NCBI GenBank assembly: GCA_000091205.1
Contig: AP006488.2
DNA from: Cyanidioschyzon merolae
Lineage: Eukaryota
Strand: one strand, 5' to 3'
Length of the DNA stretch: 64,000 bases
Shown piece after piece: positions 7,831-64,000 of this stretch. Both the position numbers and the translations under genes were made by a program. Each line of letters begins with the position of its first letter. The first letter of the stretch is position 1. The notes beneath the pieces are model-generated. The model saw only the letters and a program-made list of their open reading frames with translations. It had not been told where the DNA came from and made no database searches.

Positions 7831-9945
7831 ATGGGTGTCTGTTGGAGTGATTCGGAGGAATCCAGTACGAAAAAACGGCCTCGTTCGAGAGTGGTCCCTG
7901 AATTAACGCTGCAACCTCGAGGCAGGACGAGCCCTGAGGAGCGTGCTCAGGGAAACGTTCGCTCCGCAGCCGCAGCTACAACCTTCGTACTGCATAGCGT
8001 GAGCCGGAACGCACTTTCCACTTCGCAGCACGAGCAGCACGAGCAGCAACCGCAGCAACCGCAGCAACCGCAGCAACAGCAGCTATGGGGACACCCGCTA
8101 AAGCCCAAGGCGGCAGAGACCATCTTCAACCTTCCGTCTTGCGACTTGGTGCGATTTCTTGGCCAGGGGATGCTCGGTACCGTGGTATTGGTGCGCGAAC
8201 GCGCGACTGGCAAGTTCTATGCCGTCAAAGTCATGTCGCTGCAACGTGTGCGGCAACGCGGGCAGGAACGCAACGTCCAGCTGGAACTTGAAATAGTGCG
8301 CAACTGCGGGGCACACCCATTTATCGTGAAAGTCGAGGCCGGGTACCAGACTCGCCAGGCGCTGGTGCTGGTGCTCGAGTATGTCAGCGGAGGCGACATG
8401 TACAACCTACTAGAGCGCTACCGATGCATTCCAGAGGACGCACTTCGTTTCTATGTCGCTGAGTTAGCGCTGGCACTCGGGCATTTGCATGCGCGCGGTT
8501 ATGTCTGCCGCGACCTCAAAGTGGAGAATGTACTTATCGATAGCCGAGGTCATGTGCGTCTAACGGACTTTGGCTTGGCAGGTCGCGATGCCGACGGCTG
8601 CACTGATCGCAGTGGCACACCGATCTACCAGGCACCAGAGGTGCTGCGAGGCGAACGCCATGGCCGTCAAGTCGACTGGTGGGCACTCGGCATTCTCGCC
8701 TACTTCTTGCTGGCAGGTACACCGCCCTATTACGCGCCAACCGAGCGGGAGGTCTATCGCATGATTCTGGACGAACGCTCCGAGCCAGCGTGGCAAGGTG
8801 GTTACATGACCGGGGCCAGTGCGGTATGCAAGGATTTCCTGCGTCGTCTTATGGATCGAAATCCGCGGACTAGGCTCGGCAGCGGGGCCAGCGGCACAGC
8901 TGACGACGTCGACGAGGTCTTGGCACATCCGTTCTTCTCTGGGGTCTCTCGACGGTGGCTCACGGAACGCGGGAATGTGTCACCCACACTGCTTAGTATG
9001 ATGAGGGACGATGATCAGCCTGGCATTGATGTGGATAAATTCTTACGATATCAAGTGGTTCCACCGCTGGAGCCGGCAAAGCAACCAGCAGCGGATTTTG
9101 AACCTGTAGATGAGGATGTTCTACGAGCGGATGAGAATTTGTACGCTGCGCTGACGGGTGATAATCGCCCCCAGGCCCAGCATCTTGCCAATATGGTTCA
9201 AACCTCCACTGAATCGATGGCTAGGGCGAAGCTGACCACTGAGAACGCGTTCGTTCCCGGTTACAAGGTGTATTTCTGGGGGGAGCACCATGGCGATGTG
9301 GTCGCCAACAGAGCGACCCGCCGCAGCCCATGGAGGTCGGGGTCCAGGCACGGGTTGGGACGACGCTCACCTCTAGCTCACGCAAGAGCCAGTGAAGTTG
9401 CTGTGCCACCTCTCGCCGTCCAGCGGACATACTCGATGCCTGCCTGGATTGGAACAGTTGACCAGGACAGGGCCGAGCGGTCTCCGACGGAGCGTCGCCC
9501 GTATAGCGGTCGCACCGATCAGAACAGCGCCGTTGCTCAGGCGTTCGGAATCACATCCACGACTGGCAGCAGTATTCAGCGTCACCGAGAGCATGACTTG
9601 AAAGCATTTCGTTCAGCGAAGACGCTCGGAAAGCTGTGGATGCGACTGGGTAGGCAGCAACGCTTGGCGATCCGCTCTGACGGAGATGCGGAAGAGTTGG
9701 TGCTACCCACGTCCGTATCCAGCTCTGACGTTAGCGCTATGCATGGAAACGTGGATAACGACGCAGACGAGGAGTCGAGTGGCATATGGGAAATTTCGGA
9801 GGCACAGGAGACGCCCCATGCGGGCGCGAGTCGATCACGTACTTCGATCGGCTTGAATTTTAGCCGCACCCGTCAGTATCTCTTCGAGCGGACCTGGACG
9901 GGCACCGATGATGACGAAGGTCGCGTCTACCGCCTAGCGGGGTAG
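7831..9945 (+). CDS. AGC-family Ser/Thr protein kinase with an N-terminal Q-rich tract and a long low-complexity C-terminal tail
   Basis: A 704-aa ORF. Kinase subdomains: LGQGMLGTVVLV (Gly loop), FYAVKVM (VAIK), HARGYVCRDLKVENVLID (HRD), LTDFGLA (DFG), GTPIYQAPEV (APE), DWWALGIL. An AGC-type C-terminal extension follows (VLAHPFFSGVSRRW). A polyQ stretch QHEQHEQQPQQPQQPQQQQ precedes the catalytic domain. Confidence 0.8.
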   Translation: MGVCWSDSEESSTKKRPRSRVVPELTLQPRGRTSPEERAQGNVRSAAAATTFVLHSVSRNALSTSQHEQHEQQPQQPQQPQQQQLWGHPLKPKAAETIFNLPSCDLVRFLGQGMLGTVVLVRERATGKFYAVKVMSLQRVRQRGQERNVQLELEIVRNCGAHPFIVKVEAGYQTRQALVLVLEYVSGGDMYNLLERYRCIPEDALRFYVAELALALGHLHARGYVCRDLKVENVLIDSRGHVRLTDFGLAGRDADGCTDRSGTPIYQAPEVLRGERHGRQVDWWALGILAYFLLAGTPPYYAPTEREVYRMILDERSEPAWQGGYMTGASAVCKDFLRRLMDRNPRTRLGSGASGTADDVDEVLAHPFFSGVSRRWLTERGNVSPTLLSMMRDDDQPGIDVDKFLRYQVVPPLEPAKQPAADFEPVDEDVLRADENLYAALTGDNRPQAQHLANMVQTSTESMARAKLTTENAFVPGYKVYFWGEHHGDVVANRATRRSPWRSGSRHGLGRRSPLAHARASEVAVPPLAVQRTYSMPAWIGTVDQDRAERSPTERRPYSGRTDQNSAVAQAFGITSTTGSSIQRHREHDLKAFRSAKTLGKLWMRLGRQQRLAIRSDGDAEELVLPTSVSSSDVSAMHGNVDNDADEESSGIWEISEAQETPHAGASRSRTSIGLNFSRTRQYLFERTWTGTDDDEGRVYRLAG
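8025..8085 (+). repeat. CAG/CAA/CCG trinucleotide repeat tract encoding the polyQ/QP stretch of the kinase
   Basis: cagcacgagcagcacgagcagcaaccgcagcaaccgcagcaaccgcagcaacagcag, read directly from the sequence. Confidence 0.85.
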
Positions 9946-11813: not shown

Positions 11814-12761
11814 TCAAGGAGTCCTGTTATGGCCAACCCATCTGCCGAGCAGACATGGGGCATTCGCTGAACGTTGACGAGCTTCTGCGGTGATCACTCG
11901 AAAGCCCGCTCGCTTGTAAAGAGAGAGTGCCCCAGCGTTTTCTCTCTCTACGTGGAGATAGATTGTGCGATGCTGCCACGCTCTGGTCTGCGACTCGCAC
12001 TGCGCCAATAGATATCGGGCAATGCCGCGTCGACGATAGTCCGGATGCGTCGCAAGGTTGTACAAGTACACGCGCCGCACGATTCCCTGGTTACAATTGC
12101 GGCCGTGTGCGCGTCCGGAAACATTCTTACCCGCTATACGTTCGAGAAGATCAAGCAACGCGGCCGTGAATGACGTCACCTGGACTCGCACAGGTTCGAG
12201 CGACATTTCCACTATACCGACAACCATCTCTGCAACTGGCTCCGAAGCGCCCCCTGGTGCATGCAGACTATCGCGCGGCGGTCGCGGCGTAAGCGCTTTG
12301 TCTTTCGAGCATACAGACGCCTTTGCTATGAAAAGTCGGTGGTTATTTGGCCGAAACTTCATGCGTAAGCGGAAACCTAGCCAAGCCTCTAGCGTCAACA
12401 AAAAGAGCTCCCACTCTTCTCGCCAGCCGCGGTAGAAGGACTCAGGTGCGCCAGCTGAAGACTGATTATCTTTCACTTGGTGCGCAGAATCCTGTGTGGC
12501 GTTACTGCGGAAACAGATTGCGTAAACCTGAGCGGCCTTCCAGACCTCATCAGCCGTGCAGGCCTCCTGCACACGAACTAACGAACCGCTGCCTGTTGTC
12601 GACAGCAACGGTGCGCCCTGAATTGCAGCTTCCGGTACCTTGACCAACGGTTTCTTCGATTTATTCTCCGTCGCCAGTGTGCATTTGGCCGCTTTATACT
12701 GAGCACACAATCGGGCTCTGATAATAGAGCTCTGGAACGCTGCGAATAGCTTGCGAGCCAT
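11814..12761 (-). CDS. GNAT-family N-acetyltransferase, with a long N-terminal extension that may be an organellar targeting region
   Basis: The C-terminal region carries GNAT motif A/B: IVRRVYLYNLATHPDYRRRGIARYLL ... IYLHVERENAGALSLYKRAGFRV (R-x-x-G-x-A acetyl-CoA-binding motif). Confidence 0.7.
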   Translation of the reverse strand: MARKLFAAFQSSIIRARLCAQYKAAKCTLATENKSKKPLVKVPEAAIQGAPLLSTTGSGSLVRVQEACTADEVWKAAQVYAICFRSNATQDSAHQVKDNQSSAGAPESFYRGWREEWELFLLTLEAWLGFRLRMKFRPNNHRLFIAKASVCSKDKALTPRPPRDSLHAPGGASEPVAEMVVGIVEMSLEPVRVQVTSFTAALLDLLERIAGKNVSGRAHGRNCNQGIVRRVYLYNLATHPDYRRRGIARYLLAQCESQTRAWQHRTIYLHVERENAGALSLYKRAGFRVITAEARQRSANAPCLLGRWVGHNRTP

Positions 12762-15700
12762 GGTAAACGGAGATCACCAGACGAATCTTAGGCTGAAGAC
12801 GCCTCGCACTGGGTGCGCACGCGCGCGCTCCTCTGGATGTCTGGATTGTCCAGTCCTTCTTGTTTCTCCCGTGATCTCGGTTTGCGTGGCCCCTGGCCCT
12901 CTGATGTGTCGTGTAGCTCTATTGGTATACTTGTCCAGCTTTTGGGACAATCAAAAGATTCGGTTTCTTTGTCATCTGATCCACACCAGACCTTGAAAGT
13001 TTTATCTGTGACTGTTTTCTTTTGTTATCTTACATTTGGGGTTTCAAATTTGCCGATTTCTCCTGTTACTCCAGCACCATTGTCATCCGTGGAACGATAT
13101 TGGGAGCATTTTGCAAGTACCGATTTCACAGCTTCTTGCCACTTTCTCCGGATTTATTGCATAGACGGAAGTTGCGATCTACGCCTCGCTCACCATTATC
13201 ATATTCGATGTATACAGGCTCGATACGCGGTTGGTAGGCGTGAGATTTGGCTCTGGTCAGCAGCACCCATATATCCAGAACATTGCCTGCTTCAATCGCC
13301 GTCCTGTGGCAGGTGAATGCTTGCTTCCTCGCTCGGTGAAAATCCTCTACGGGCGCAGAGGGCTCTCCTCGATGTGCTCCTCCATTTTCGCGTCCGACGC
13401 CGTATTCTATGATCGCGAGCATCTTTTGGACGCCCCCTCGGTAAGTGCTCTGTCCGCTGCACACGTGATTGCACATTGTTCAACTCGATATTCTAGCATC
13501 CGATTCCGTGCACGCTCCTCGTTTTTCTACGTACCCTTCTTAAAAAGCTGACCCATACAGGCAACGGGCATCGATATAACTTAGCCATATGCGAGAATCT
13601 TGTCCACAATTTCCAACCGCTTGCGGCGATGCGGCGTAGGCTCCAGAGACTCACTTTTGCTTCGCTCGCTAGTTTGCCAGACCGTTCCTTCACTCGTGCC
13701 CGTCCGCTGGGACGATTATGACAGGCGCGGAGTTGAGCTTCACGACCGCACATGAAAGTCGGAGTGATCGAAAGTTACTCCACCAAAGCGTTGGCCGTTT
13801 CCATAGGGATGTCGGCCAGCTATTTGAGTCTCACGGAAGCGCAAATCTAGACGCACGTAGTCCTTCGTTCGAGGCCGATGTAGACCGCATTTTGGTGAAT
13901 CTGTGCGAGACCATGCGTGTGCGAATCTCACCGCTCGTCCGAGTGTTTCGTATTCTGATCCTTCTTGCGTTTCTAGCCCTCATAAGAGTTTGATATCTGT
14001 GGGAACTTCGAGTTGTTGACGAACGATTCCCACTTGCAATTGACTTCGACGGAGCACAGTTCGCCACCTGGCTGTTGCGCAAACCTCTAGTTCGCCCATT
14101 TATTCTCCGCATATGCATCTTTCTTTGTCTTATGTCGCTCCTTGTTTGTCTCCTAGTTCATGCATACCTTCGATTCTTCGGGCAAAAATGCATACTTAGC
14201 TTCATGAACTCGATATCATCGAGCAGTCCTTCCTCTTCTTCGACGCTCTTGTTCTGCATTTGATGCAAATTTCGTACCTCAGCGTGAATGCCAACCCAGA
14301 ACGAATCGAAAAAGACGCGCAGTGAAGCGCTTGTCAGAGCGATCTAGAGGCGCGTTTGCAAAAGTCTATTATACTCTTCCAATGGAAAACTGGAAAAGCA
14401 CTCCAAATGCAGAACCATCATCGCTTTTGTGGGCGGGATATCCCCCGGCAGCAGATCCGTCTTGTCCCTCACATCTTCGTCTTCCATGGACATTCAACGG
14501 AGATGTGTCGCGCTATCTACATCCTCCGCGCCGACGGGCTTCGACGAAGCTCCTGCCATGAGGAGCTCTCTCATGCCGTTGCACCTTGTGATCGAGTCAT
14601 CGCCCGCTGGTCTCTACGTCATAGAATCCTTTGTCCGCCTGTGTCGCTGCGCGCTGAAACACCTCAGGATTGGCATGAGAACTTTCACATCATGGTGCAC
14701 CTTTGCGCCATCGAAGTCGTTTTGATTCACAAATCAAGAGCGGCCTTTGACATCGCAAAGACGCTCAGCAGGGAAACGAAATGCGTGCGGGGTTGGTGAC
14801 GGAAGGAAGCGAATGACGTGCATTCGGTATGTGCTCGGGTAGACTGAGGACAAGAAAAGCCGTCGGTTTCTGTAGCACCTCTAATAAGTCCTCCATTTTG
14901 ACATGGGCTCCGACACACCCGAAGAACAAGGTCATGAGCGTGAAGTACGTACGTTCCGGGAGTATGCTCTGAAGAAGCACTTGTTCTATGACGTTGTCAA
15001 CATGTTTCGGCTACGGCAAATACGTTCCGGGATGTACCTTAACGACCGCTGCGTTGTGGTGTAGCGATGAGCGCGTCTCCTCGTCCGACAGAACACCCAA
15101 GCTATGAGCGTCGGTTAACTGGGTATTACATCCAAGCGTGACGAGTTTTGCTGGGGACGGTATCTACCTCCGTGCCAAACACTCTAGGATTTCTTGAATG
15201 CTCTCACAGAATCATTATCCTAAAATGCCGGGTGCGCTCAGAATGTGCATGCTACTTGATGGATAGAGTGTCTCTACTTACGCTTTACGGATTGTCCATC
15301 TCTGTTTCTCATGCATAATCGTAATTCAGCAATCCACAAACGTTAGGGAATATTGTCAAACAAGCGTCAACGATCCCAAGGGCCGCGGTCGCCGCAACAA
15401 AAGAGTCGAGCACCAGTCCATTTCGAGGAGGATCCAAGCTCTCGAACAAGCATTTGCCTTTCTGAATCTGCGCATAGTAGCCCGAAAACGTTTTCAGTCT
15501 GGTCGAACCATGAAGAATACGTTGGGGCGCATAAGTTGGTCCATCTCCTATTCTTTGCTCTTTTCCAAATGGAAGATGATTTATAGAAAGCAATTTTGTT
15601 TCTGATGATACAAGTACTGGAAGAAAAATCCGTATCGTAGATGTCCAGGAATTTCGAACTCTCGATGCTTTTTTGATGCAAAGCTATGGTGCAGTTTCCA

Positions 15701-16572
15701 TTGGACACGATTTCCGCGATGGCTCAATTCCAAGACACTGTTCCGTGCTAACAGAAAACAAAGAAGGCTCTGGGAGCGTATCCAGTGAGAGGTTTCCTGC
15801 CGCCTTTAAATGCAGTTTTCTCGATGGCTACATACTGAAAAGGATTTGTCATTCGAATGGAGTCGGGTATTTCAAGCGATACCTTCAGAGTACGTTCGGC
15901 ATGAGCCAGTCAAGGAGTCTTTATATATCGACGTCAAATGCTTCCCTTCTTCCACCTCGCGTCACGAACTGCTGCATTCACGAGTTGCTGTTCAATGAAA
16001 AGATCAAAACATGGGTAATACGCAATTTGAGCATGCTACTCGTAAGGAATAGAGAATCATAGACGCCTGTGCGTATGCATTTGATCATCATTTGGGTTAT
16101 TTGACGAACCTTTGTTCAACGGCGCCACGATGCATCTTAAAGGCGGCGACTTGCTGAATTCTAGCGGCGAAGATTCAATGGAGCCGTTCCGAACATATGA
16201 CCAATAATCCCAGAGCTAGGTATGCATCCGTATGCCATAATTGCTGTATCTTGAATGTCTAAGCTGTGCAAATAACAAAAGTTGGGAATAAACGAAATGC
16301 AGGAACAGAGCGAGCGCTTTACGATTCCACAGTCAACTGACACGGGTGTGGAGGCGTGCTCGCGGTTCCGCCATCGCGTCCGTCTGCTGGAACCCGAACC
16401 CTAAATCCATCGGTTTATCGAGCTCCGTCACGATCACTTTTATCATCAGCTCATTTTCCATAACGATTTCCTTGAGACCATATGCTTCGCACCCTTGCAG
16501 TGTTGCAGCAGAACTATGTGGTCTTCCGTTCATTGATGAGAAGACGCCCCGCAGCGGATAACAGATGAAGCG

Positions 16573-16584
16573 CCCCCCCCCCCC
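16573..16584. repeat. Homopolymer C12 tract
   Basis: cgcccccccccccc read directly; lies in an ORF-poor region. Confidence 0.9.
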
Positions 16585-17525
16585 GGTTACGCTACAGCGT
16601 CGATATCTTCAGGTTTCGAGGCTTTAGAGGTACATAACGACCCACTGGCCTCCATAGAGCAGCATGCATTTGGCTGTATTCACAGCATGCCAGCTGGTCA
16701 TCCTCGGCATGGAGCATGCGCAAGCTTTTTGGCAACAGCCGTATCGGCGGGATATATTTCGCGGGGATTTTTCTGCCGGAGCAGAAATTCTTGTGAAATT
16801 TTCACATGATCGTGGCGGCGTCGGGAGCGCACACTGATCGACAGGCGAATAAACGCTGAAGGTACGAAACAAGCGTAGATTCTGCTGCGTCCGTTGCTTC
16901 TGTCGCCAGTGCAGCAGGTAGTGTGCACGAGCAAGCTACCTTTTCGATCGAACCAGATTCATGGCTCGCTCGGGCGCTCGCCAGCATCCAGCTGTAGTCT
17001 TACTTTTCATGGGACAGTAGCTCCGCTCTCTGTTAAGAAACAACTGCTTATATTCCCAGTCGAAGAGGTGTTCGATGACCATGGCTCTTGGGAATTTAGT
17101 CCATTGCACAAGAACCAAGTGAGGATCTTTATTCCGCGCTAGTTTTGTTGAAACGGACTCCTGCGAACAAAAAATGCACAACCATATTGCTACACATCGA
17201 TTACTGACTGAGGCGGATCACAAACTGAGGCTGCTTGCATGAACTTTCAGCGTCGCATGCCGGCGTCAGACTGAAATAGAACACTGAACTGCTCGCTGCG
17301 TTTGTGCCTTTTGTTTTTACAGACATTTTTATACTTACAGCTTCGACATTCGCCTTTTATCAATGATTGCTTGCGTATCCACACGTGGTTTCCAGAGTCT
17401 CGGTCGAGCTCCCCGAGTGGATAATTCGAGTCTCTGCCTCTGTACCTAGCTTCATTATCGTCATCGAAATCATTTGCTAAGCACTTGTAGAGAACTTTGT
17501 GAAAGAAACGAAATCACAAGCCGAT

Positions 17526-18116
17526 TCATACTTGCAAGCGTCCACTCTTCCCTTTCCTTGAGTGAACCATGCTAAAATCACACGCTGCTCTTGGTATAGG
17601 TCTTTCTGTTTCAAAGTAACTCGTCCCGCAGCGATTCGGCCGACCAGATTGAGGAGCAAAGAGTACACGACGCTGGTCTAGAACGACTTTCAAAGGTCGT
17701 GCCGAAAGTTCGTTGATATTTAACGTAATGTGATCGATTCCGTTCGAAAAGCATGCTCTCCCCTCTTCGTGACGATTAACGATACGGGATTCGATACCGT
17801 CGTGGTACATCTCTCGAAATACGTCCTTAGAGGTTTCGGTCCTTTCTGCAAGCATGAATAAGGGTCGAGGGCTTAGAATTCAGTCACGGCGGCGATCGCT
17901 TTTTTCGGGGAGTGCGTCAACGCTCTTCACGACGGAAGCACAAGCGGATAGGAAGTACTTGGCATGGAGACCAGCATCGATATTCCTTCCAATGTTTTGT
18001 TCAGTCACGAACAACGGCGCATGCCACAAATCTGCTACAGAATCGAACAGTGTGGGTTCGCATACGCAACATGCCGAGCGCTTGTACAAAGTAGATTTCC
18101 CAAAAGAAGCCCTCAA
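17526..18116 (-). CDS. Candidate methylmalonyl-CoA epimerase / glyoxalase-family (VOC) gene in two exons (18116..17888 and 17845..17526) joined across a putative 42-nt intron (17846..17887). Tentative.
   Basis: Minus ORF 17526..17855 encodes EMYHDGIESRIV..GIDHITLNINEL...RRVLFAPQSGRPNRCGTSYFE. This resembles the C-terminal half of methylmalonyl-CoA epimerase (ELLHPLG..GGMHHICIEVDNI...KPVIFLHPKDCGGVLVELEQ). The upstream minus ORF 17880..18116 ends with ...VDALPEKSDRR, which resembles ...SEAVPLPEHG. Splicing GTGACT...TTGCAG (phase 1) joins the two ORFs in frame as ...EKSDRR-Q-RTETSKDVFREMYHDG. Confidence 0.35.
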
Positions 18117-18589
18117 TCCCAGGTTACAGCTCAGGACGCGGAAATGGTAAAGAGCTTCCAGGGGAGCCTTCTGTACCCATAGCGGGCATGTAGCGAGTGA
18201 CGACGCAAGCTTTCACGTGTCACAGCGCGACCTTTGGAAGAGTAGGCTCGAGGAGGAATCGGATACCTGAGCATAGCCGAGTGTCATCGCTGCGAAGGGT
18301 GCACCGAGGCCGAATAGGAAGAAAATGATTATGGTACACGAGGCGAAGATCGCAACTTCTTCAAGTGCATGAGCTGCAATGACAACAGTCGGTAGCGGTC
18401 TCATCGTGGCGTATGCGCAACAATAGAAATCCTTCGACTGCTGGCAAAGGAGCTGGAGAAACAAAATTAACTGGCTACTGAAAATGGGAAATGAGAAACG
18501 CAAAGGAAGCAGTCGCGGTAAAAGTTCGCAGCCGCTCTTGTTGAAGACACTGGGAAGAAACCAAAACTTTCACGGGGACTCCTGTTTTG

Positions 18590-19660
18590 GCTAGGAGCAA
18601 CCTTTACATTTTATTCTGACCCGGTTGCAGAATATTATGGTCCTCAAATCAATCCTGTCCCACCCTGGCAGCGCTCTATAGCCTGAGATCTGAATCACTA
18701 TGCAATGCACCGTACATATGAATGGCGTATTGCTACTAGGATATCTATTCGTTCCTGAACAGTTCAAAGAGGACCGCATTCCTCCTTTAGGCTAGGTATA
18801 TCACAGTACTCAGATAGCCGACGAAGACGTAAGGGAGGAAGTAAACGCGCCCTGCGAAAAAAGCCGATACTCCCAAACACTCCTTGCCCGTTCATTGCAG
18901 AGAACGACCCGTTGATTAGTTTAAGGAAAGCAAAAGCCACAATAGTAGTCATCGCGGGTGTCTCTGTTCATCACCAGCTTGTTCGTATGGTCCTGGAAAG
19001 ACTTGGATACAGTCGCAAAAAAAAGAGTTCTAATTCGCCCAGGGGCATCTTTCAGGGAAATCGCAACCAAAGCGTAGCTAGGGAGTCACGATCCGCATGA
19101 AGACCAGGTACGTCGGATTTTTTCAGTCGATGAGACTTGCTTTTGATGAAACGGTCGGAAAGTATATGGGTATTCGTGGAGCGGGGAGCCCGTTGTACGT
19201 AAGGTTGAGCTGGTAGAGAACGACGACATTATCACCTGTTCTAGCTGCACTGTATTCATTCGGTCGCCTCAGTTTCAAACATAATTGAGGCTCAAACAAT
19301 AGCAACAACAGATTCGTCGAGTCACTAAACACTTTTCCCTAACGTCTGGCGACATCGCTCTATGGAACGGAGTTGTGTTGCATCGTTCCCCTTGTGTTTG
19401 AGCTTTTTGCCGAATCTATTGGGGTGGAGCTGATTGTCATTCCTCCTTTCTCATCGTAGCTCTACCCGATCGAACGAGTGTTTTAAGCCGCGAGACGTAA
19501 TGATCGCTCTACAGGGTGAATCGCTGAAGCTTTCAGCACGGTGACGAGTCGGGTCACTTGTCAACTTTCTTCCGCAAGTCCCTCTCCTTCCGGGCAGGTC
19601 CTCTTCGAAGGTCATAGAGAAAAGCGTTCACTTGAAGAAACATAAAATTCAAGGTAAAGT
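18590..19660 (+). repeat. Dispersed repeat family R2, copy 2 (boundaries approximate)
   Basis: Collinear with copy 1 through the blocks gagatctgaat, agtactcagat, aaagcaaaagcc, tcaccagcttgttcgtatggtcctgg, cagtcgcaaaaaaaagagttctaattc, ttttttcagtcgatgagacttgcttttgatgaaacggtcgg, gagaacgacgacattatcacctgttctagctgcactgtattcattcggtcgcctcagtttc, ccgcaagtccctctccttccggg, gcgttcacttgaagaaacataaaattcaagg. Confidence 0.6.
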
Positions 19661-20363
19661 TTTTGACTTGAAAGTCGAGGTTCCTGGAGGCGCGTTTTCG
19701 CTGGTTTCGACACAAAACGGAACAAATCCTCTTCTCCCCGACCACCACGCAAAGAAGATCAAGTGAAGAAGAGGAAGAATGGAGGAGATGGGCGGAAAAA
19801 GATGTTTGCCCTTCAGAGCAATGAGGAGACGAGTGATACAGAGGTCATGATTTTTAGCAACTTTGTATTGATGAGTTCACCCAGCGGCTCTGCACGCATG
19901 AGGTTCGTGAATCGAGACTTCAATGCCTCCAGGCAATATCGGACGCCTTGTGGAGCTGAAGACGAGACCCCCAGAGCTGACGTGAGCGAACGTTGTGGCG
20001 ATCTCTGGTGCTCGAAGCGTAGAAGGTGAAGCTGAAGCCGATACCAACTGGCCGATCGAAAAAGTCTAAGAGGCGTCTGCGAGTGGATATGCATTTACCC
20101 TGCACGGCCGTAAGGCATTATTTGTTTCAATAACATTTGTATCACGACCAAGGTAACAGAACTTTCGCTCAGTACCGACGAAAATCGATCCTCAAAACGC
20201 AGCCCAAACAACACACCCCTGGTCAAGCTCAAAATCTTGCGGACTGTGGCACAGTCGCCTTTAATCCTGAAAGTTCTTTGGTACCGCGGCGGCAGATGCA
20301 GGGTCGGCAACATCCGTTGCACACGAAGGTGTTGCTCATTCACGAAAAGGTCTTGCATTGCTT

Positions 20364-23300
20364 CTATGACTCTGCTTCTGCCTGATGTCGGCTAACACTA
20401 CTACCTAGAGCAGCAAGTGTGGTTCGAGCGGCATTGGAAGCTATATGGACTGCAAGATCCGGACCGTAGTGATATTCTAACGACCAATCATCCAGCGGAT
20501 CTGCTGGGAATACAAGCTCTTGATCACGTACCACGCGAAACCCAGCCAGCGCCGGATCGGGAAAAATGCCGCTCTGTGCAGGAGGCTTCCTCTCCGAATC
20601 TAAGCCTCCGATACCTGCGAACATGTTCAGTTGAGCAGCCTTATTCGTGAACGAACCACCGGGCGACGTTCCCGTAGACAGCGGTATACCGAGCTGCATC
20701 GGTGAACCAGGCTGGAGCCCAGACAATCTCGCGGCAAACGCCGACGGCACGCTTCCGGTTGTGAGCCCGATGTTGGACGAGCGTGAGGGTATTCGCGGTG
20801 GTAACGAGTCCGAGTAGCCTTCGGATTCGGCAGATGATACCGGCGGTGGTCGACTGAGTCGCCCGCCATCCGAAGCTTGACTCAAAGCGCGCTGCTCTCG
20901 CATGATCGCCTCAGCAAGCACTTCGTTGATCATCTGCAGCTCGCGTCGCTCAGAAAGATACCGCCCTCTGCGAATTTCAGGAGACGTTGATGTCGGAGCA
21001 ACAAACGCTACACTCCGCCGTGGATTCCAAGCGACCACTGGTGCTGGATGGGGCCACAACGGATGATAACCGGTCCGCAGCCACTCGACGCCACATTCGA
21101 ACCCGATTTCATACAAGGCTCGAATTTGCTCTTCGCTCAAATATCCCGCATATTCATAGTCCGTTAGCGTCGAGTCTTCCCTCAGTATATCGTGAATGGA
21201 CTTCATACCTTCGAGGAATGAGTGCAGCTCCCTTGCAAGACAAATTTTGGACCAGCAATCTAAGCGAAATCGCTGCAAAATATCCCTCAGTTTTTCAGAC
21301 CTGCGATCTCGAGCAGAAAGCAGCGCAGCACCGCATATCTCAATGCGGATCCGCGTGTCGAGACCGAGTTTCGGCAACGCACAGGTCCATGTCTCTCGGA
21401 AGGCATCATACGAAGTCTCGTATCCTTCAACAATCTCCCTGTACCCATGGCCGTCATCCACAGAGACGCGAATGTTTGCAGCCTCCCCACGTTGAGCCAG
21501 AGCATTCAGATCCACTACACCAACGAAATGGATCGTGAACTGCCGCATCGGGCTCCAGATGCTCCGCGCGGGATCCTGTCCGGCGTCTGGACCGACCGCG
21601 TCACTCCATATCTGTACGGTGAGTGTCTCACAGGCCGCCTTCCTGGACCCTGGATTCGAGTCGACAACTTGAAAATCTGTGCTAAAGCAGGTTACACGTG
21701 CGCATCGCAAAGGATCATCGCCGCCGCTGCCGTCGTCCTCAATCATCTGGAAGGTGTGTTCGCCTCCCGCTACAACCGTCACATCGAACATTTCGGGATT
21801 TTCCAGTCCAGCATCCGCGTCAAAATTCTGATCATCCATCAGGGCCGCAAAATCGTTCGCTATGCCGCTTCGACATCCCGGGGAGGATGCGAGAGGAACG
21901 ATCGCACCGGATGCTGCGAACACAGGCACATCGTCGACTCCGCCATAGACGCATATCCAGCGATTGCCAGCGTATGCCTCACCGGATGGCAAGTGGCGCC
22001 AAGTTCCCGGTGGTAGCCACAGGACGCGGCGAGCGCACCCCACAGAGGGCAGGATCGGTTCGAGGAAAGGCGCCACCAGCAGCTCATCCCCGAAAAAGTA
22101 CTGCGTACAGCACGCAGTGTACGCGAGCGGATTCTGCGTCGGATACTGGTAATACAATGGACGGCAAAGTGGGGTGCTTTTGAGCGAGGCCTTGACGCAC
22201 TGCGAGTATATATAGGGGATGAGGCGATGGCGGTAACGCAGCGCTGCCGTCGCCGCCACAGCATACGTTTTCTCGTAAGACCACGGCCAGCGTCGTATGA
22301 ATTCTGACTTGTGGCCATGGAGGCGAAGAATCGGTGAATATACGCCCAGCTGGACCCAGCGAACGTAAAGCTCGCCATCCGGCTGAACACCTCCCATAAA
22401 CCCGCCTATATCATGAGACCAGAAGAAGAACCCCACATTCGCTGCTGTTGCAGTGATCACTGGTTGCACCGCTAGTGATTCCCAGGTGCTGTGCGTATCA
22501 CCGGAGAATCCCACCGGGTAACGATGGTTCCCGAGACCTCCGTATCGAGAAAGGATCAGTGCTCGGGGCTCAGCACGCCCAAATTCTCGTGCAGAGTCCA
22601 GGCAGTGCAGATGATTCAGGTATATGAGCGGGTCCAGGCCAGCGACGCCTGACTGCGTTCCTTGCTGCCAATCGATCCACCAAAAATCCACGCCTATTCG
22701 TTCATGTGGATTATGCAGGAACTCAAAGTAGGCCTTCATGAAAGATGGCGAGGCGACGTTCAGGTACAGCGGTGTTCCACTGGAAGCATCGACGCCGAGC
22801 GCAGTGGCCATTGCCGTATACATTGATTCATGAGCATGGACTCCATCAGCGGGGTGAACATTTAACCCGATCCGAACACCCAATTGTTTCAGGGCCCTGA
22901 GTGCCTCGAGCGGGTCTGGGAACAGCTCTGGATTCCAAGTGTAACCGGTCCAACCGGGCAAGTGCCAATCCATATCCAGTATGCACACGGACAGTGGAAT
23001 GTTTCGACCATTTTTCCATTCATTGACCCACTGGATAATCTCCGATTGGGAGTAAGGCCACCAGCGAGACCACCAGTTGCCGAGAGCATATCGCGGCAGG
23101 AGTGGAACTTTTCCTGCGATGCTGGTGAACGTCTGCAGTGCACGGGAGTACTGGTCGCCATACGCAAATACATAGAGATCCACTGATCTCGGATCTCGCG
23201 CTCGCTCACAGATCCAGCCATGAGCATCGAAGATAGGTGATGTCGAGTCGTCAACAATCGCCCAACCTCGTCTCGAAATGATGCCGTTCCCAAGATCGAC

Positions 23301-37530: not shown

Positions 37531-39658
37531 GAGGCAAATCGTCCCGCCACCACCTCTCCACAAATATGAGCACGCTTTCGCTTCTGGCAGAGGCAGCCCC
37601 AGGTTTCACACACTACTCAAGCTCCGGCGTTGTCCGAAACACACTATCCTACACACTGCTCCCCAGCAGCAGGCGCGGAGACTGATGATCGTCTGGTCGG
37701 CCGCACGGCGCGCGGTGCCATGCACTGGAATCGGTAGGCAGCAGGTACCACAGCCTGCAGCGTATACGATTAGAAACGGCTATACTGAGCTATGGAAAAC
37801 GAGGTCTATGTTTTGTTGCAGCGAACCTCAGCCATAAATTGAGTATTCCCCATGAAAACCAGGAACGACCGTTCCAGGCAGAGCTTGCAGACGTTTGTTG
37901 TTTCGACGGTAGGTTTACCACGACGCGCATAAAAGTATTCCGCTCAGGTGCGGGCCACAAACACAGCCTCGAGCACAGTGCTCCTGCGAGCCGCGAGCGC
38001 CTTGATAACGTGTTGAGTAACGGGAGCAACGCGAACACAGCGGCGATGTGAACAGAACGTGCAGTCCTGCGGCCTGTCGCGCGCGAGATAGCGCTGTAAG
38101 AGTCGCGGTGTCGGGCTTTTTCGCGGACGCTCGCGTGAGGCCGAGTCTCGTGCAGCGCCCAGCGACAGACCACGTGCACTCGTGCACTCGACTGCGCGCT
38201 GCTGCCTGCATGTGCAGCACCAGCTCGGATACCAGCGTCAATGCCAGAGCTATCGAAACGCCAGGCTAGGATGGGCCAGTGAAGCGCTCGCTCTGTGCCT
38301 GCCTTTTGAACATTTCCCCGACTTTTCCTCGATACACGGCCTCGACATTCAATGTGCGGCTCTAACTGCTACTCGACTCAATGTTAGAGTTAGAATCCTC
38401 GGTCGTGTGTTCAGGGCGGCTCGTTTGACTCCTTTCTCCTGGCATTCGTGGCGCCAACGGAATCAAGATGACTCGGGGCGCCGTCGAACACGCGTTGGTG
38501 GCATATCCGAAAATATGGTTTTCCGGTTCGAGCGCCCAAGCGTCCACGCTTGTCCTTGCCTAAAATGTAGCCTGCCCGGATCACGCATGCTTCGCGTACT
38601 CAATGGACCTGCTTGGAGGCCACCCGTGGGCACTGCAATTTGTGCAGATGGATTTGCGAGGCGGACAACTCGACGTCGTGCCCTGGCGACATGCTCGCAG
38701 GCTCATGCCGGGCGTTCACTTTACTTGACACGCCGAATGGTGGATTCGGTTCGAGAGACCGATCGTGCGCTGCTTGCGGCCGTCGACGACTCGGCATTCG
38801 ACAGCAGCATGGTACCACTCAGGGCTGGTACGCTCGCAGATGTTCCTGTCTCCCCTGTTCGGACTGCAACGAGACATGCACCGGGCCTCGAGGCACCGCA
38901 TGGATCGCTCTCAGCAGAGCGTGCGTCACTGCTGAGCACGAAGCGAGTGCAGAGGGGTCGACACTTCTGGATCGACAGTTCTTGATCGAGCTCGTCTGTA
39001 CTGATATCCCAGAACTTGCATCGTCATCGACAACATTGCGTTCCGCAAATGCTTTGTCGAACGGAGCAACGAACGCATTCGTATGCAGCGGTTAGCGTAC
39101 TCGCCGAGTGATCGCCAAGAAGAAGCGGATCATCATCGCAGGGTCCGGCATCTGAAGCTGAGCCCGAGGGGGGCATTGACGGGTGTCGTCTGTAGCCATA
39201 GAAGGCATGCACTGAGCGACGGAGCTGGTGTCCTCGTCCCCCAGAGCAGCCCACGGAGGGGCAGGCGCAGTGGACACACAGGAATCGCGGATCACGGTGA
39301 TGGGTCCGCGCTGCAAAGCGCTTACCTGGGCTGTTTATAGAAGAGGTGCACGAATCGAGTGCGGCATGGACCCGAACTGCTGCCTGATGATGAAATGCGT
39401 TCGCGAGAGCGGGAAGCAGTAGAATCGGGGCTTGCGCGTTGCTATCAGCAGACCTCGACTGCTGAGACTGAACCATGAGGCACCGGAGAGACCTGCTCAT
39501 TTCAGGCGGGGGATGAGATAGAGAGCGATGAAAAGGTATCGGTTGCTGGAAAGCCCGGAGAGACTTGTAATGATGACAGTGGGAACTGACCGATTGTTTA
39601 TGGTGCACACCTGCTTTAGCGAAGTGGGACGCGTTCCACTTGAGTCTGACATGGGTAT
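37531..39658 (+). repeat. Repeat R1 copy A (full-length, ~2.13 kb); near-identical to 54995..57095, and its right ~1.39 kb matches 59721..61108
   Basis: ORF-track proteins in A and B are identical or differ by one residue at a constant +17464 offset: 37790..38179 = 55254..55643; 38182..38985 = 55646..56449 with a single H/L difference; 38613..39095 = 56077..56559. The flanks diverge at gaggcaaatc (left) and after gacatgggtat (right). Confidence 0.9.
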
Positions 39659-54994: not shown

Positions 54995-57095
54995 GAGGCA
55001 AATCGTCCCGCCACCACCTCTCCACAAATATGAGCACGCTTTCGCTTCTGGCAGAGGCAGCCCCAGGTTTCACACACTACTCAAGCTCCGGCGTTGTCCG
55101 AAACACACTATCCTACACACTGCTCCCCAGCAGCAGGCGCGGAGACTGATGATCGTCTGGTCGGCCGCACGGCGCGCGGTGCCATGCACTGGAATCGGTA
55201 GGCAGCAGGTACCACAGCCTGCAGCGTATACGATTAGAAGCGGCTATACTGAGCTATGGAAAACGAGGTCTATGTTTTGTTGCAGCGAACCTCAGCCATA
55301 AATTGAGTATTCCCCATGAAAACCAGGAACGTCCGTTCCAGGCAGAGCTTGCAGACGTTTGTTGTTTCGACGGTAGGTTTACCACGACGCGCATAAAAGT
55401 ATTCCGCTCAGGTGCGGGCCACAAACACAGCCTCGAGCACAGTGCTCCTGCGAGCCGCGAGCGCCTTGATAACGTGTTGAGTAACGGGAGCAACGCGAAC
55501 ACAGCGGCGATGTGAACAGAACGTGCAGTCCTGCGGCCTGTCGCGCGCGAGATAGCGCTGTAAGAGTCGCGGTGTCGGGCTTTTTCGCGGACGCTCGCGT
55601 GAGGCCGAGTCTCGTGCAGCGCCCAGCGACAGACCACGTGCACTCGTGCACTCGACTGCGCGCTGCTGCCTGCATGTGCAGCACCAGCTCGGATACCAGC
55701 GTCAATGCCAGAGCTATCGAAACGCCAGGCTAGGATGGGCCAGTGAAGCGCTCGCTCTGTGCCTGCCTTTTGAACATTTCCCCGACTTTTCCTCGATACA
55801 CGGCCTCGACATTCAATGTGCGGCTCTAACTGCTACTCGACTCAATGTTAGAGTTAGAATCCTCGGTCGTGTGTTCAGGGCGGCTCGTTTGACTCCTTTC
55901 TCCTGGCATTCGTGGCGCCAACGGAATCAAGATGACTCGGGGCGCCGTCGAACACGCGTTGGTGGCATATCCGAAAATATGGTTTTCCGGTTCGAGCGCC
56001 CAAGCGTCCACGCTTGTCCTTGCCTAAAATGTAGCCTGCCCGGATCACGCATGCTTCGCGTACTCAATGGACCTGCTTGGAGGCCACCCGTGGGCACGGC
56101 AATTTGTGCAGATGGATTTGCGAGGCGGACAACTCGACGTCGTGCCCTGGCGACATGCTCGCAGGCTCATGCCGGGCGTTCACTTTACTTGACACGCCGA
56201 ATGGTGGATTCGGTTCGAGAGACCGATCGTGCGCTGCTTGCGGCCGTCGACGACTCGGCATTCGACAGCAGCATGGTACCTCTCAGGGCTGGTACGCTCG
56301 CAGATGTTCCTGTCTCCCCTGTTCGGACTGCAACGAGACTTGCACCGGGCCTCGAGGCACCGCATGGATCGCTCTCAGCAGAGCGTGCGTCACTGCTGAG
56401 CACGAAGCGAGTGCAGAGGGGTCGACACTTCTGGATCGACAGTTCTTAATCGAGCTCGTCTGTACTGATATCCCAGAACTTGCATCGTCATCGACAACAT
56501 TGCGTTCCGCAAATGCTTTGTCGAACGGAGCAACGAACGCATTCGTATGCAGCGGTTAGCGTACTCGCCGAGTGATCGCCAAGAAGAAGCGGATCATCAT
56601 CGCAGGGTCCGGCATCTGAAGCTGAGCCCGAGGAGGGCATTGACGGGTGTCGTCTGTAGCCATAGAAGGCATGCACTGAGCGACGGAGCTGGTGTCCTCG
56701 TCCCCCAGAGCAGCCCACGGAGGGGCAGGCACAGTGGACACACAGGAATCGCGGATCACGGTGATGGGTCCGCGCTGCAAAGCGCTTACCTGGGCTGTTT
56801 ATAGAAGAGGTGCACGAATCGAGTGCGGCATGGACCCGAACTGCTGCCTGATGATGAAATGCGTTCGCGAGAGCGGGAAGCAGTAGAATCGGGGCATGCG
56901 CGTTGCTATCAGCAGACCTCGACTGCTGAGACTGAACCATGAGGCACCGGAGAGACCTGCTCATTTCAGGCGGGGGATGAGTTAGAGAGCGATGAAAAGG
57001 TATCGGTTGCTGGAAAGCCCGGAGAGACTTGTAATGATGACAGTGGGAACTGACCGATTGTTTATGGTGCACACCTGCTTTAGCGTAGTTGGACG
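54995..57095 (+). repeat. Repeat R1 copy B (full-length, ~2.1 kb)
   Basis: See copy A. Its right end diverges slightly earlier than in A and C, after tagcgtagttggacg. Confidence 0.9.
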
Positions 57096-59720: not shown

Positions 59721-61108
59721 ATGGGCCAGTGAAGCGCTCGCTCTGTGCCTGCCTTTTGAACATTTCCCCGACTTTTCCTCGATACACGGCCTCGACATTC
59801 AATGTGCGGCTCTAACTGCTACTCGACTCAATGTTAGAGTTAGAATCCTCGGTCGTGTGTTCAGGGCGGCTCGTTTGACTCCTTTCTCCTGGCATTCGTG
59901 GCGCCAACGGAATCAAGATGACTCGGGGCGCCGTCGAACACGCGTTGGTGGCATATCCGAAAATATGGTTTTCCGGTTCGAGCGCCCAAGCGTCCACGCT
60001 TGTCCTTGCCTAAAATGTAGCCTGCCCGGATCACGCATGCTTCGCGTACTCAATGGACCTGCTTGGAGGCCACCCGTGGGCACGGCAATTTGTGCAGATG
60101 GATTTGCGAGGCGGACAACTCGACGTCGTGCCCTGGCGACATGCTCGCAGGCTCATGCCGGGCGTTCACTTTACTTGACACGCCGAATGGTGGATTCGGT
60201 TCGAGAGACCGATCGTGCGCTGCTTGCGGCCGTCGACGACTCGGCATTCGACAGCAGCATGGTACCTCTCAGGGCTGGTACGCTCGCAGATGTTCCTGTC
60301 TCCCCTGTTCGGACTGCAACGAGACTTGCACCGGGCCTCGAGGCACCGCATGGATCGCTCTCAGCAGAGCGTGCGTCACTGCTGAGCACGAAGCGAGTGC
60401 AGAGGGGTCGACACTTCTGGATCGACAGTTCTTAATCGAGCTCGTCTGTACTGATATCCCAGAACTTGCATCGTCATCGACAACATTGCGTTCCGCAAAT
60501 GCTTTGTCGAACGGAGCAACGAACGCATTCGTATGCAGCGGTTAGCGTACTCGCCGAGTGATCGCCAAGAAGAAGCGGATCATCATCGCAGGGTCCGGCA
60601 TCTGAAGCTGAGCCCGAGGAGGGCATTGACGGGTGTCGTCTGTAGCCATAGAAGGCATGCACTGAGCGACGGAGCTGGTGTCCTCGTCCCCCAGAGCAGC
60701 CCACGGAGGGGCAGGCACAGTGGACACACAGGAATCGCGGATCACGGTGATGGGTCCGCGCTGCAAAGCGCTTACCTGGGCTGTTTATAGAAGAGGTGCA
60801 CGAATCGAGTGCGGCATGGACCCGAACTGCTGCCTGATGATGAAATGCGTTCGCGAGAGCGGGAAGCAGTAGAATCGGGGCTTGCGCGTTGCTATCAGCA
60901 GACCTCGACTGCTGAGACTGAACCATGAGGCACCGGAGAGACCTGCTCATTTCAGGCGGGGGATGAGATAGAGAGCGATGAAAAGGTATCGTGTGCTGGA
61001 AAGCCCGGAGAGACTTGTAATGATGACAGTGGGAACTGGCCGATTGTTTATGGTGCACACCTGCTTTAGCGTAGTTGGACGCGTTCCACTTGAGTCTGAC
61101 ATGGGTAT
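59721..61108 (+). repeat. Repeat R1 copy C (left-truncated, ~1.39 kb; corresponds to A positions 38271..39658)
   Basis: ORFs at 59812..59997, 59857..60435, 60063..60545 and 60474..61058 are identical or near-identical to the A and B equivalents. C shares the B-specific variants (ATRLAPGLE; HKLPCPRV; GHGNLCRW; TSQGW). Confidence 0.9.
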
Positions 61109-61469: not shown

Positions 61470-63274
61470 AAATAGGGCGAGAACGCTCGGCTCTGTGCCG
61501 TTCAAGGAAGCGTGCCCGTATGGAAAGGTTCACGTCTTTGGTCACGGGTATCTGCGGCCGTTACGGCAAAATAAACCAACACGTACATACGCGGGGACTC
61601 CAACACCATAAGGCAGCGCTACATTTTTCACCTGCATACGAGCCCAATTTGTAAGCAGTACGTCACGAGAACCATTTGCTCGATGACATGCTAGAAATGC
61701 GAAGCGATGCATGGATGGGGATGCCTTAGAAATATCAGAAAAAAGCGCTTTAATCCAGTCATCCTGCATGTACAGTACGAGCAGCGTCAACGCAACGTCA
61801 ATGCGTGCGGACAACCTATGTTGTGGGAGGCATTTGCGCGCCTGATGCTCTGCACCGGTAACCTCAGCAACATGTACACAATGACATAGCGACTACGGAG
61901 CCGTGCCTCCGGTTCCGTGTGTGCGCTAGGGTCTCCGTCTCCTCTTGGTTCTGAAGTTCCGACAGACACCCTCATTAGTGACGCGTAGTCTGTAAAGGCG
62001 ATCATTGATAGACAACGCACTGTGCTGAAGGACCTCGGGGGACGCGATGCTCATCTGCGTGGCCAAATTAGAAGCGATAAAGCTGAGGCCTATGAAAGGT
62101 CCCGGAGCTCAGTGAACCCCTTGTGATCATCACGCGCTAATACGAATCCGCTCTCCTGGAGATGAAAGCTCCCTTACACAGTAAAGCATCGAAGGTGCTG
62201 TCTCGCTTTCTGAGGCCCGCTCTACTCGGGGCTCCAATCCCAATAAGAAAAACCAAGTCTCACGCTCGGGCAGCAAATGCAACGTTGTTGTAAATGCTTC
62301 TATATGATGCAGGGCCTGCAATTTGATGGTATCAGATTGGGATCACCGTCACTGCAGCTGCCAGAGAACGTGAGATATATGCGCTCAAAAAGATTATTCA
62401 GGAATGTAGAAGGTTTCCAGCGGCTTCTGGGCATCTGCGCTTGATCTGTTGCCGCAAAATGGAGCAGAGCACTGCTCACTAAGCTGGAGCATACCATGAT
62501 AATACCCAGCAATGCGGCCGAGAGTAGCCAAGAATACATATGGATGAGAGCAGTCGAGCGTCTGTCCGCACTTCCAGCTCAAGAGAGCGGTGTCGCCAGG
62601 CACACCTCGAGTCAGAAATTCTTGCAGCTGCACGGGCATCTGATTTGAACGTAGGCATCTGCAGCGAGAGTCTAAAAAAAAAATTTTCAAATATCACATA
62701 CCACGCAGCTCCGTGATCCTCGGACTCGATGCTCTGCACGATGCACGCTGCTTGTTGTAAATGCAAGGTGGGCATCTCGTTTGAGCTCTTTGGGGCTGCC
62801 TAGCACTCTTATTTCCAGACGGATTCCCAGTTTTCCTTGTTACGTTTCTCACAATTTCGCCGAATAGTTCGAAGATCATGCCAAGGCAGACATTCACATG
62901 CTATATAGCGCTTTTCGTTGGGACGGAAGCGACAAATACCACCTCCCCATGGTGGGTATCCAGGAGTGCGCTTTTCCTTCAAGCTCCATGCCTTTTAGAG
63001 CATGCGCGTAAGAGACGCAGGCTGTCGAGGCCCATGTGAACGTGCGCTTCAGAGGGAGACTATTTGGCACGGGTCGGCGTGGTGATCCGCTTCGAAACGT
63101 CGTTTATTGGAGTTATTGACTTCACGCCCGAATCTGACCGAAAGTCTCCGCGCGGTACGTTTGAGCGAAAAACCGCCCCCTGGAGCACTTTCCGGAACCT
63201 GCTGCACTAACATACTCGTGGTTCTAGTGTAGAGGAGAACGCGCTCGAAAAGAGCGAGACCGCGTTTCTCGAAT

Positions 63275-64000
63275 ATGTATGAGGCAAGCCCCAAACGACT
63301 GCCCTTGAGTGAGGTTGTGAAGCAGGCGCCGCAGCAACTAGGTCATAAGCGTCTCGTGTGCAAGCCCCAAGAGCAGCAAGTTGCAGTTGTCCTTGCTGCA
63401 GGAAGTGGCACGCGTTTCCATTCAGAGACTCCAAAGGTGATCTACCCTTTAGATGGTAAACCGCTTGTCCGACACGTCGTTGAGGCCGTCGAACAGGTGG
63501 ACGTGCCCACCGTGGTTATCATCGGTCACGAAGGTAGTCGGGTGATGAAAGCTTTGGCGGATAAAAACGTAATATTCATAGAGCAAACTGAACGCGTAAG
63601 TTTTAACCACTGCAACTCTATGAACGGAGCGTGTGCTCGTTCAAGTCGCCCTATCAGGCCAGCAAGGCTTGCGCTGCGACAGCAGCTTTTGCTCTTCTAA
63701 CAAACACTTATTGCTCACGCTGTAGATTGGAATACTAACCATGCGCGTTAACACATGCACTTCGCACGCCGAGTCAGCTTGGCACCGCTCATGCTGTATA
63801 CCTTGCTCAGTACGCACTTCCGGAGCAATTTGACGGAGATATCATCGTTCTCTATGCTGACGTTCCCGGAGTCGATAAGGATCTGCTGCAGGCAGTCCTG
63901 GAGCGCAAACAAAACCATCGCCGTGCTGACCCCACCTTTGGTGCGCTGGTTGTTACCGGCAGCCGTTCACTCTCTCTCATGTCTGCATCAGGAAACTATG
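63275..64000 (+). CDS. glmU: Bacterial-type GlmU-like sugar-1-phosphate nucleotidyltransferase (UDP-GlcNAc pyrophosphorylase N-domain). Two exons: 63275..63595 and 63778..>64000. Partial at the window end.
   Basis: Exon 1: VVLAAGSGTRFHSETPKVIYPLDGKPLVRHVVEAV...VVIIGHEGSRVMKAL..NVIFIEQTER. Exon 2: LGTAHAVYLAQYALPEQFDGDIIVLYADVPGVDKDLLQAVLE. Together they are collinear with E. coli GlmU ([36 protein letters not shown]...[42 protein letters not shown]). Reading continuity requires removing 63596..63777. Confidence 0.8.
63596..63777 (+). other. Spliceosomal intron (182 nt, phase 0) in the GlmU-like gene
   Basis: The donor is GCG|GTAAGT at 63596. A perfect TACTAAC branch-point consensus sits at 63733-63739. 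The acceptor CAG ends at 63777. Splicing restores a continuous GlmU-homologous reading frame. Confidence 0.8.

Follow-up and report, generated by a model that had tools for sequence, protein, structure and literature searches.

The window analysed here, a stretch of 64,000 nucleotides from Cyanidioschyzon merolae (contig AP006488.2, assembly GCA_000091205.1), ends within a gene that begins at position 63275 and was identified as BAM79501.1 (XP_005535787.1, UniProt M1UPV6), a protein of 306 aa from the 536,163-bp chromosome of C. merolae 10D that is deposited under the name "similar to UDP-N-acetylglucosamine pyrophosphorylase". By sequence comparison, the spliced model of the window equals the deposited protein over the whole in-window part, junction included. 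Three neighbouring ORFs exactly matched BAM79486, BAM79488 and BAM79500 of the same strain, the last of which is the ethanolaminephosphotransferase (EPT) gene that adjoins BAM79501.1 and is known in the literature as CMF133C (PMC4928187). A literature search for CMF134C, CMF135C and CMF136C found no publications. The neighbouring ORFs were plainly of eukaryotic type and encoded a GH31 glucosidase, a TRAPP subunit, DNA polymerase alpha subunit B, a protein kinase, a DEAD helicase and a member of the phosphoribulokinase/uridine kinase family. For years the public annotation of C. merolae 10D has included this gene with its product name and spliced coding sequence, and as gene, name and intron are already annotated, their presence at this locus is known and ordinary.

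The start codon is preceded by an in-frame stop at 63230-63232, and the features of the gene are listed in Table 1. Exon 2 goes 377 nt past the end of the window to its stop codon, giving 306 aa in total, as read from BAM79501.1 and from L001, a metagenome contig that matches the last 3 kb of the window at 99.6% identity and reaches 7 kb beyond it. The continuation on L001 agrees with BAM79501.1 except for two residues near the C-terminus, which reads ...EGANTLEE(A/V)(Q/H)ELERRLRTQSSSGR and aligns to the interdomain linker helix of GlmU. L001 and three more environmental contigs from different samples (L002-L004) share three differences from 10D within 63275-64000, namely the nonsynonymous I83V (63521 A>G) and the intronic sites 63658 and 63668, so a closely related wild genotype seems to be widespread in the sequenced samples.

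Table 1. Features of the BAM79501.1 gene inside the window.
Feature	Position	Strand	Description	Basis
Exon 1	63275..63595	+	107 codons (1-107)	Identical to GenBank protein; TIGR01173 match
Exon 1 contents			Clade-specific N-terminal extension (residues 1-35); signature L40-A-A-G-S-G-T-R47-F-x4-P-K54; uracil-binding Q104	Alignments
Intron	63596..63777	+	182 nt, phase 0, between R107 and L108	Junction present in deposited protein
5' splice site GTAAGT	63596..63601	+	One of only 2 plus-strand GTAAGT in the window	Matches published GUAAGU
Branch site ACTAACC	63734..63740	+	Only ACTAACC in the window, either strand	Matches published ACUAACC
3' splice site CAG	63775..63777	+		Read from sequence
Exon 2	63778..64000	+	First 223 of 600 nt; starts L108-G-T-A-H-A and includes Y133-A-D135	

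Apart from this gene, the window holds a dispersed repeat in three copies (37531-39631, 54995-57095 and 59721-61108; 2.1, 2.1 and 1.39 kb) that are more than 99% identical, with a GC content of about 55-57%. The repeat carries overlapping ORFs of 267 aa (plus strand) and 234 aa (minus strand) with no Pfam match, and about 2.2 kb separates the end of its third copy from the GlmU-like gene downstream. A minus-strand ORF of 315 aa at 11814-12761 encodes a C-terminal GNAT acetyltransferase domain and may be either GNA1, the GlcN-6-P N-acetyltransferase of the UDP-GlcNAc pathway, or an unrelated GNAT. The stretch 13316-20364 and others of 5-7 kb contain no ORF of at least 150 aa and no Rfam or tRNA match, in a genome that is otherwise gene-dense and intron-poor. 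An Rfam scan at gathering thresholds and a tRNA scan of all 64 kb found no RNA genes.

The protein was compared with profile and structure libraries. The best NCBIfam match of the full protein was the glmU model TIGR01173 (153.2 bits over profile positions 3-240 of 452; 111 bits for the in-window part), with ten lineage-specific GlmU models next in rank and archaeal and other transferases only after a large drop. The score lies far under the curated equivalog cut-off of TIGR01173 (366.85 bits) because half of the model is absent from the protein. Pfam returned only PF12804, PF00483, PF01128 and PF02348, which are general nucleotidyltransferase families, and a search of the protein for PF01704 (UDPGP, UAP1-type) gave no match. 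With TIGR01173 as best match and PF01704 absent, the view of the preliminary description that the N-domain is of the GlmU type and not of the UAP1 type holds. In a PDB sequence search the 17 matches down to E = 1.2e-17 were all GlmU (best 2e-29), residues 36-302 being aligned with GlmU residues 12-248. The AlphaFold model, for which 69 sequences were aligned (pLDDT 93.5, pTM 0.92), gave the same picture when searched against the PDB with Foldseek, where the top 37 matches were all GlmU with E down to 1e-24, non-GlmU nucleotidyltransferases began at about 1e-14 and GMPP structures appeared only at about 1e-13. The gamma and epsilon subunits of eIF2B and GDP-mannose pyrophosphorylase are eukaryotic proteins that also join a nucleotidyltransferase to a beta-helix; they were considered as the true family and rejected, GlmU being far stronger in both sequence and fold.

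The active-site residues of the uridyltransferase were also retained. The signature L-x2-G-x-G-T-x-M-x4-P-K is found as L40-A-A-G-S-G-T-R-F-H-S-E-T-P-K54, with F replacing M. Through the PDB sequence alignment, the E. coli GlmU residues R18, K25, Q76, G81/T82, D105, Y139-G140-R141, E154, N169 and N227, of which all but Y139 and R141 bind UTP, Mg2+ or GlcNAc in that enzyme, were mapped on R47, K54, Q104, G109/T110, D135, Y181-G182-R183, E199, N223 and N286 of C. merolae. All of the mapped active-site residues were invariant or nearly so in alignments of 15 and 69 sequences. The departures from classical GlmU are S44 in place of K15 and, in C. merolae and Cyanidiococcus, A111 in place of the G of GTGHA.

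A clue to function of the Rosetta-stone kind came from Rhodelphis marinus (P0189, 866 aa) and Cyanophora paradoxa (P0192, 925 aa), in which the same domain is fused downstream of the phosphoacetylglucosamine mutase AGM1. In two further eukaryotes (P0198 and P0204) the GlmU-N domain likewise forms the C-terminal half and phosphoacetylglucosamine mutase the N-terminal half of one protein. On a compact eukaryotic contig (L091) the fusion is encoded at 6001-9228 as one uninterrupted 3.2-kb ORF of 1075 aa, flanked by MCM8 and kinase genes, and it is therefore not an artefact of gene models. AGM1 makes GlcNAc-1-P and precedes the step of UDP-GlcNAc synthesis. As AGM1 supplies this sugar phosphate, the fusion is strong circumstantial evidence that the domain uses GlcNAc-1-P. 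In the literature searched, the coverage of which is incomplete, we found no description of the AGM1 fusion, of this distribution of the domain or of GlmU-type enzymes in red algae, nor any biochemical paper on clade members.

BAM79501.1 is thus predicted to be a GlcNAc-1-phosphate uridylyltransferase converting UTP and GlcNAc-1-P into UDP-GlcNAc and PPi. That reaction closes the hexosamine pathway of eukaryotes, where the acetyl group is already added at the GlcN-6-P stage, so that the acetyltransferase half of a GlmU would be redundant. Judged from conserved residues and the fusion, specificity for GlcNAc-1-P is most likely. That the same gene, with the same intron, activates another sugar-1-phosphate such as Glc-1-P, GalNAc-1-P or MurNAc-1-P is improbable. 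Such a specificity would be in keeping with S44 and A111, with the N-terminal extension and an insertion specific to the clade after the motif IVEKK, and with the uncharacterised nature of the stand-alone bacterial homologues of about 250 aa, which are called 'NTP transferase domain' proteins. However, the GlmU residues that contact GlcNAc and uracil are all retained, the AGM1 fusion ties the domain to the supply of GlcNAc-1-P, and in the fold search GlmU structures score about 10 orders of magnitude better than all further nucleotidyltransferases.

The protein stops at residue 306, in the linker helix, and its orthologues all end at the same point. No hexapeptide repeats (PF00132, PF14602) were matched in the protein or its orthologues, and no beta-helix or hexapeptide domain was encoded by plus-strand ORFs in the approximately 4.5 kb downstream. 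BAM79501.1 is a stand-alone GlmU pyrophosphorylase domain with the start of the linker helix, and not a bifunctional GlmU; the C-terminal left-handed beta-helix acetyltransferase domain, which the preliminary description had proposed to look for, is absent from both protein and downstream DNA. Besides, a Galdieria sulphuraria protein of 347 aa (P0355) carries the name 'Bifunctional protein GlmU', and several JGI metagenome proteins of the clade (330-400 aa) are named bifunctional uridyltransferase/acetyltransferase, with no hexapeptide-repeat domain recorded in any of them. As the clade proteins have a single domain, 'Bifunctional protein GlmU' is a misnomer for proteins of 347 aa, and such names are probably annotation carry-over.

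Bacterial bifunctional GlmU (TIGR01173; E. coli, PDB 1HV9/2OI6) has the same Rossmann-like pyrophosphorylase domain, the LxxGxGTxxxxxxPK signature, the active-site residues and the start of the linker helix, whereas BAM79501.1 is without the C-terminal left-handed beta-helix domain for acetyl transfer and trimerisation, adds an N-terminal extension of 35 aa and the insertion after IVEKK, and is encoded by a nuclear, eukaryotic gene with an intron. The E. coli truncation GlmU-Tr331 (PDB 1FWY/1FXJ, 'N-acetylglucosamine 1-phosphate uridyltransferase') has essentially the same domain content and was the second-best fold match (E = 2.9e-23); its crystallisation with UDP-GlcNAc (1FWY) shows that the N-domain is able to bind the product when the beta-helix domain is incomplete. 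GlmU-Tr331 is, however, a laboratory truncation that keeps the first beta-helix turns, whereas BAM79501.1 is a natural stand-alone protein. Some bacterial GlmU-N-like proteins (about 245-260 aa; Zixibacteria, Syntrophaceae, Gemmatimonadetes and others) also stand alone and have the same single-domain architecture; they are deposited as 'NTP transferase domain-containing protein' or 'UDP-N-acetylglucosamine pyrophosphorylase'. These were the best bacterial matches (33-41% identity), but they have neither the N-terminal extension nor the insertion. The eukaryotic UAP1/AGX1/QRI1 enzymes (PF01704 UDPGP) belong to a different family, which presumably catalyses the same reaction at the same place in the hexosamine pathway.

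Of 1.84 billion cluster representatives that were searched, only 22 had E < 1e-30; in a profile search about 49 clusters scored 196-506 bits, against at most 163 bits for bacterial proteins. Named high-scoring members came from Cyanidiococcus yangmingshanensis, Galdieria yellowstonensis, G. sulphuraria, G. partita, Gracilaria domingensis, Rhodelphis marinus and Cyanophora paradoxa. When 257 domains were placed in a neighbour-joining tree based on 246 columns, 37 eukaryote-type sequences were monophyletic with 93% bootstrap, the stand-alone bacterial proteins falling outside; the sister of this clade was unsupported (10% bootstrap). The clade shares an N-terminal extension motif, L-x2-[VI]-[SP]-L-x2-[FY]-V (KRLPLSEVV in C. 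merolae), as well as the insertion after IVEKK, which is shortened in C. merolae, and BAM79501.1 belongs to this group of stand-alone or AGM1-fused GlmU-N proteins by its position in the tree, the motif and the insertion. The AGM1 fusions carry this motif too, within their linker. The structural model is confident near residues 11-20 of the extension (residues 1-35, window 63275-63379), with a block pLDDT of 96. A plastid transit peptide was considered for residues 1-35 and rejected, as the motif is conserved across the clade and is internal in the fusions; the extension looks like a structural element or a linker relic instead.

The nearest non-eukaryotic relatives are bacterial GlmU-type proteins with 28-41% identity from many phyla, some of them single-domain proteins of about 250 aa and others complete GlmUs. 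In a contig scan with one peptide pattern, the best 80 bacterial loci listed (28-38% identity) likewise came from many phyla without a pattern, and no cyanobacteria were among them, which is weak evidence given the single pattern; a cyanobacterial, that is endosymbiont, source of the domain is not indicated by these comparisons. We infer that eukaryotes acquired this bacterial-type domain long ago, as it is common to red algae, Rhodelphis and a glaucophyte, and that the gene is not a recent transfer. The bacterial or endosymbiont origin put forward at first thus stands for the type of the domain and for its nearest relatives, which are bacterial GlmU-type proteins, but not for an import specific to this lineage or for a cyanobacterial signal. 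Phylogeny had also been named as a check on that origin, and its outcome is divided: the eukaryotic clade with 93% support speaks against the original view, whereas its limitation to a few lineages, short of a eukaryote-wide distribution, speaks for it.

A full bifunctional GlmU, recently integrated from a bacterium or from the plastid ancestor and later interrupted by an intron, is very unlikely. Its appeal lies in an N-domain that is collinear with GlmU, in GlmU as the best family match and in the bacterial GlmU-type proteins as nearest non-eukaryotic relatives. The bifunctional part is already refuted by the end of the ORF at codon 306, the lack of a hexapeptide domain in the next 4.5 kb and the equal shortness of the orthologues. 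A recent import is countered by the eukaryote-only clade (93% bootstrap) that unites red algae, Rhodelphis and Cyanophora, by an identity of at most about 41% to any bacterium and by the lack of cyanobacteria among the best 80 bacterial loci listed.

The intron separates Q104 from G109 and lies within the uracil-binding loop. Its donor reads CGC/GTAAGT, and the branch point is contained in TACTAAC at 63733-63739, where the branch A (63738) precedes the 3' splice site by 39 nt. The read-through frame meets an in-frame TAA at 63698-63700 and ends as a 141-aa ORF, while splicing restores the frame through the nucleotidyltransferase motif EQxER-LGTAHA (...FIEQTER/LGTAHAVYLAQ...). As the deposited protein has exactly the junction EQTER/LGTAHA, the 182-nt intron is real and already annotated, and the pre-mRNA of BAM79501.1 is probably spliced at 63595/63778. 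The length and the coordinates 63596/63777 proposed in the preliminary description are borne out by the sequence and by the deposited junction; of its splice signals GTAAGT, TACTAAC and CAG were read correctly, and only the exon side of the donor, given as GCG, was wrong.

According to a preprint (10.64898/2026.05.17.725761), C. merolae and its relatives have the consensus GUAAGU / ACUAACC / AG, 39 introns are present in 38 genes of C. merolae, of which 26 had been annotated earlier, intron-containing genes are orthologous across sister species and premature stops are frequent in introns. The BAM79501.1 intron has all three signals, its removal restores frame and homology in agreement with the deposited coding sequence, and with its premature stop and its orthologous introns in sister species it resembles the other introns of C. 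merolae; it is in phase 0, whereas the commonest phase reported for the group is phase 2. The earlier remark that introns are rare here and have a strict yeast-like branch point agrees with this published consensus and count. A GTAAGT followed by ACTAAC within 600 nt occurs only once in the 64-kb window, both strands counted, against about 3.9 in mononucleotide shuffles, and a splice-signal scan of the window found no further candidate introns. The tiny intron set and strict splice signals of C. merolae are a studied model system.

Both hexamers are also depleted about 2.5-fold relative to dinucleotide-preserving shuffles: GTAAGT occurs 6 times on both strands of the window (expected 15.2 +/- 3.4) and ACTAAC 7 times (expected 15.7 +/- 3.8), the latter with no copy on the minus strand. 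The depletion may come from selection against cryptic splice sites where introns are few, or from mere composition bias.

Relatives allowed the age of the intron to be bounded. At the same codon boundary, introns of 193 nt and 181 nt are present in a Cyanidiococcus-like contig (L005) and in a third cyanidialean lineage (L009/L010), respectively. Both introns start with GTAAGTT, end with TAG and have ACTAACC at 43 nt from the 3' end, and both genes keep the same upstream neighbour, a CDP-alcohol phosphatidyltransferase. The three introns can be aligned only at the splice signals, and exon 2 is in frame with 62-66% amino-acid identity in the two other lineages. Being common to three cyanidialean lineages, the intron dates at least to their common ancestor. 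No intron is present at the ER/LGT site in the genes of Gracilaria (L006) and of a Galdieria-like alga (L007), nor in the many metagenome members of the clade that consist of a single ORF; an earlier gain followed by loss elsewhere may account for this. For a gene of bacterial ancestry, the later gain of the intron that was proposed at first follows by logic. That the intron is retained, so that only the 141-aa read-through product is made or the gene is a decaying pseudogene split by an insertion, is hardly credible despite the inefficient splicing reported for C. merolae (about 10-70% spliced reads for the 26 annotated intron genes in long-read data, PMC8831791) and the separate 141-aa and 132-aa ORFs listed by metagenome gene callers, as exon 2 is kept in frame at 62-66% identity in two lineages whose introns are unalignable bar the signals, both exons encode catalytic residues and the 141-aa product would be without D135, E199, N223 and N286.

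Taken together, we consider it probable, at roughly 85%, that the locus holds an annotated stand-alone enzyme of the GlmU-N type, a probable GlcNAc-1-P uridylyltransferase, with one strict-signal intron and an origin in an old eukaryotic acquisition. The single phase-0 intron would be removed from the pre-mRNA, and unspliced RNA would yield only the truncated product of 141 aa. Two useful corrections follow for the family, which is single-domain and not bifunctional, and which is an old, lineage-wide eukaryotic family and not a recent transfer.

A wider reading for Archaeplastida is offered tentatively, and we regard it as rather less than an even chance. In red algae, Rhodelphis and glaucophytes, UDP-GlcNAc would be made by a GlmU-derived uridylyltransferase domain that was acquired once, early in Archaeplastida, was first fused to AGM1 and maybe displaced the canonical UAP1; a later split of the fusion in the red algae would have left its linker as the N-terminal extension. 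If true, a bacterial domain would have been recruited early into the hexosamine pathway of Archaeplastida. The AGM1 fusion and the restricted distribution of the domain make a small, possibly unreported point on how this pathway was rebuilt in Archaeplastida.
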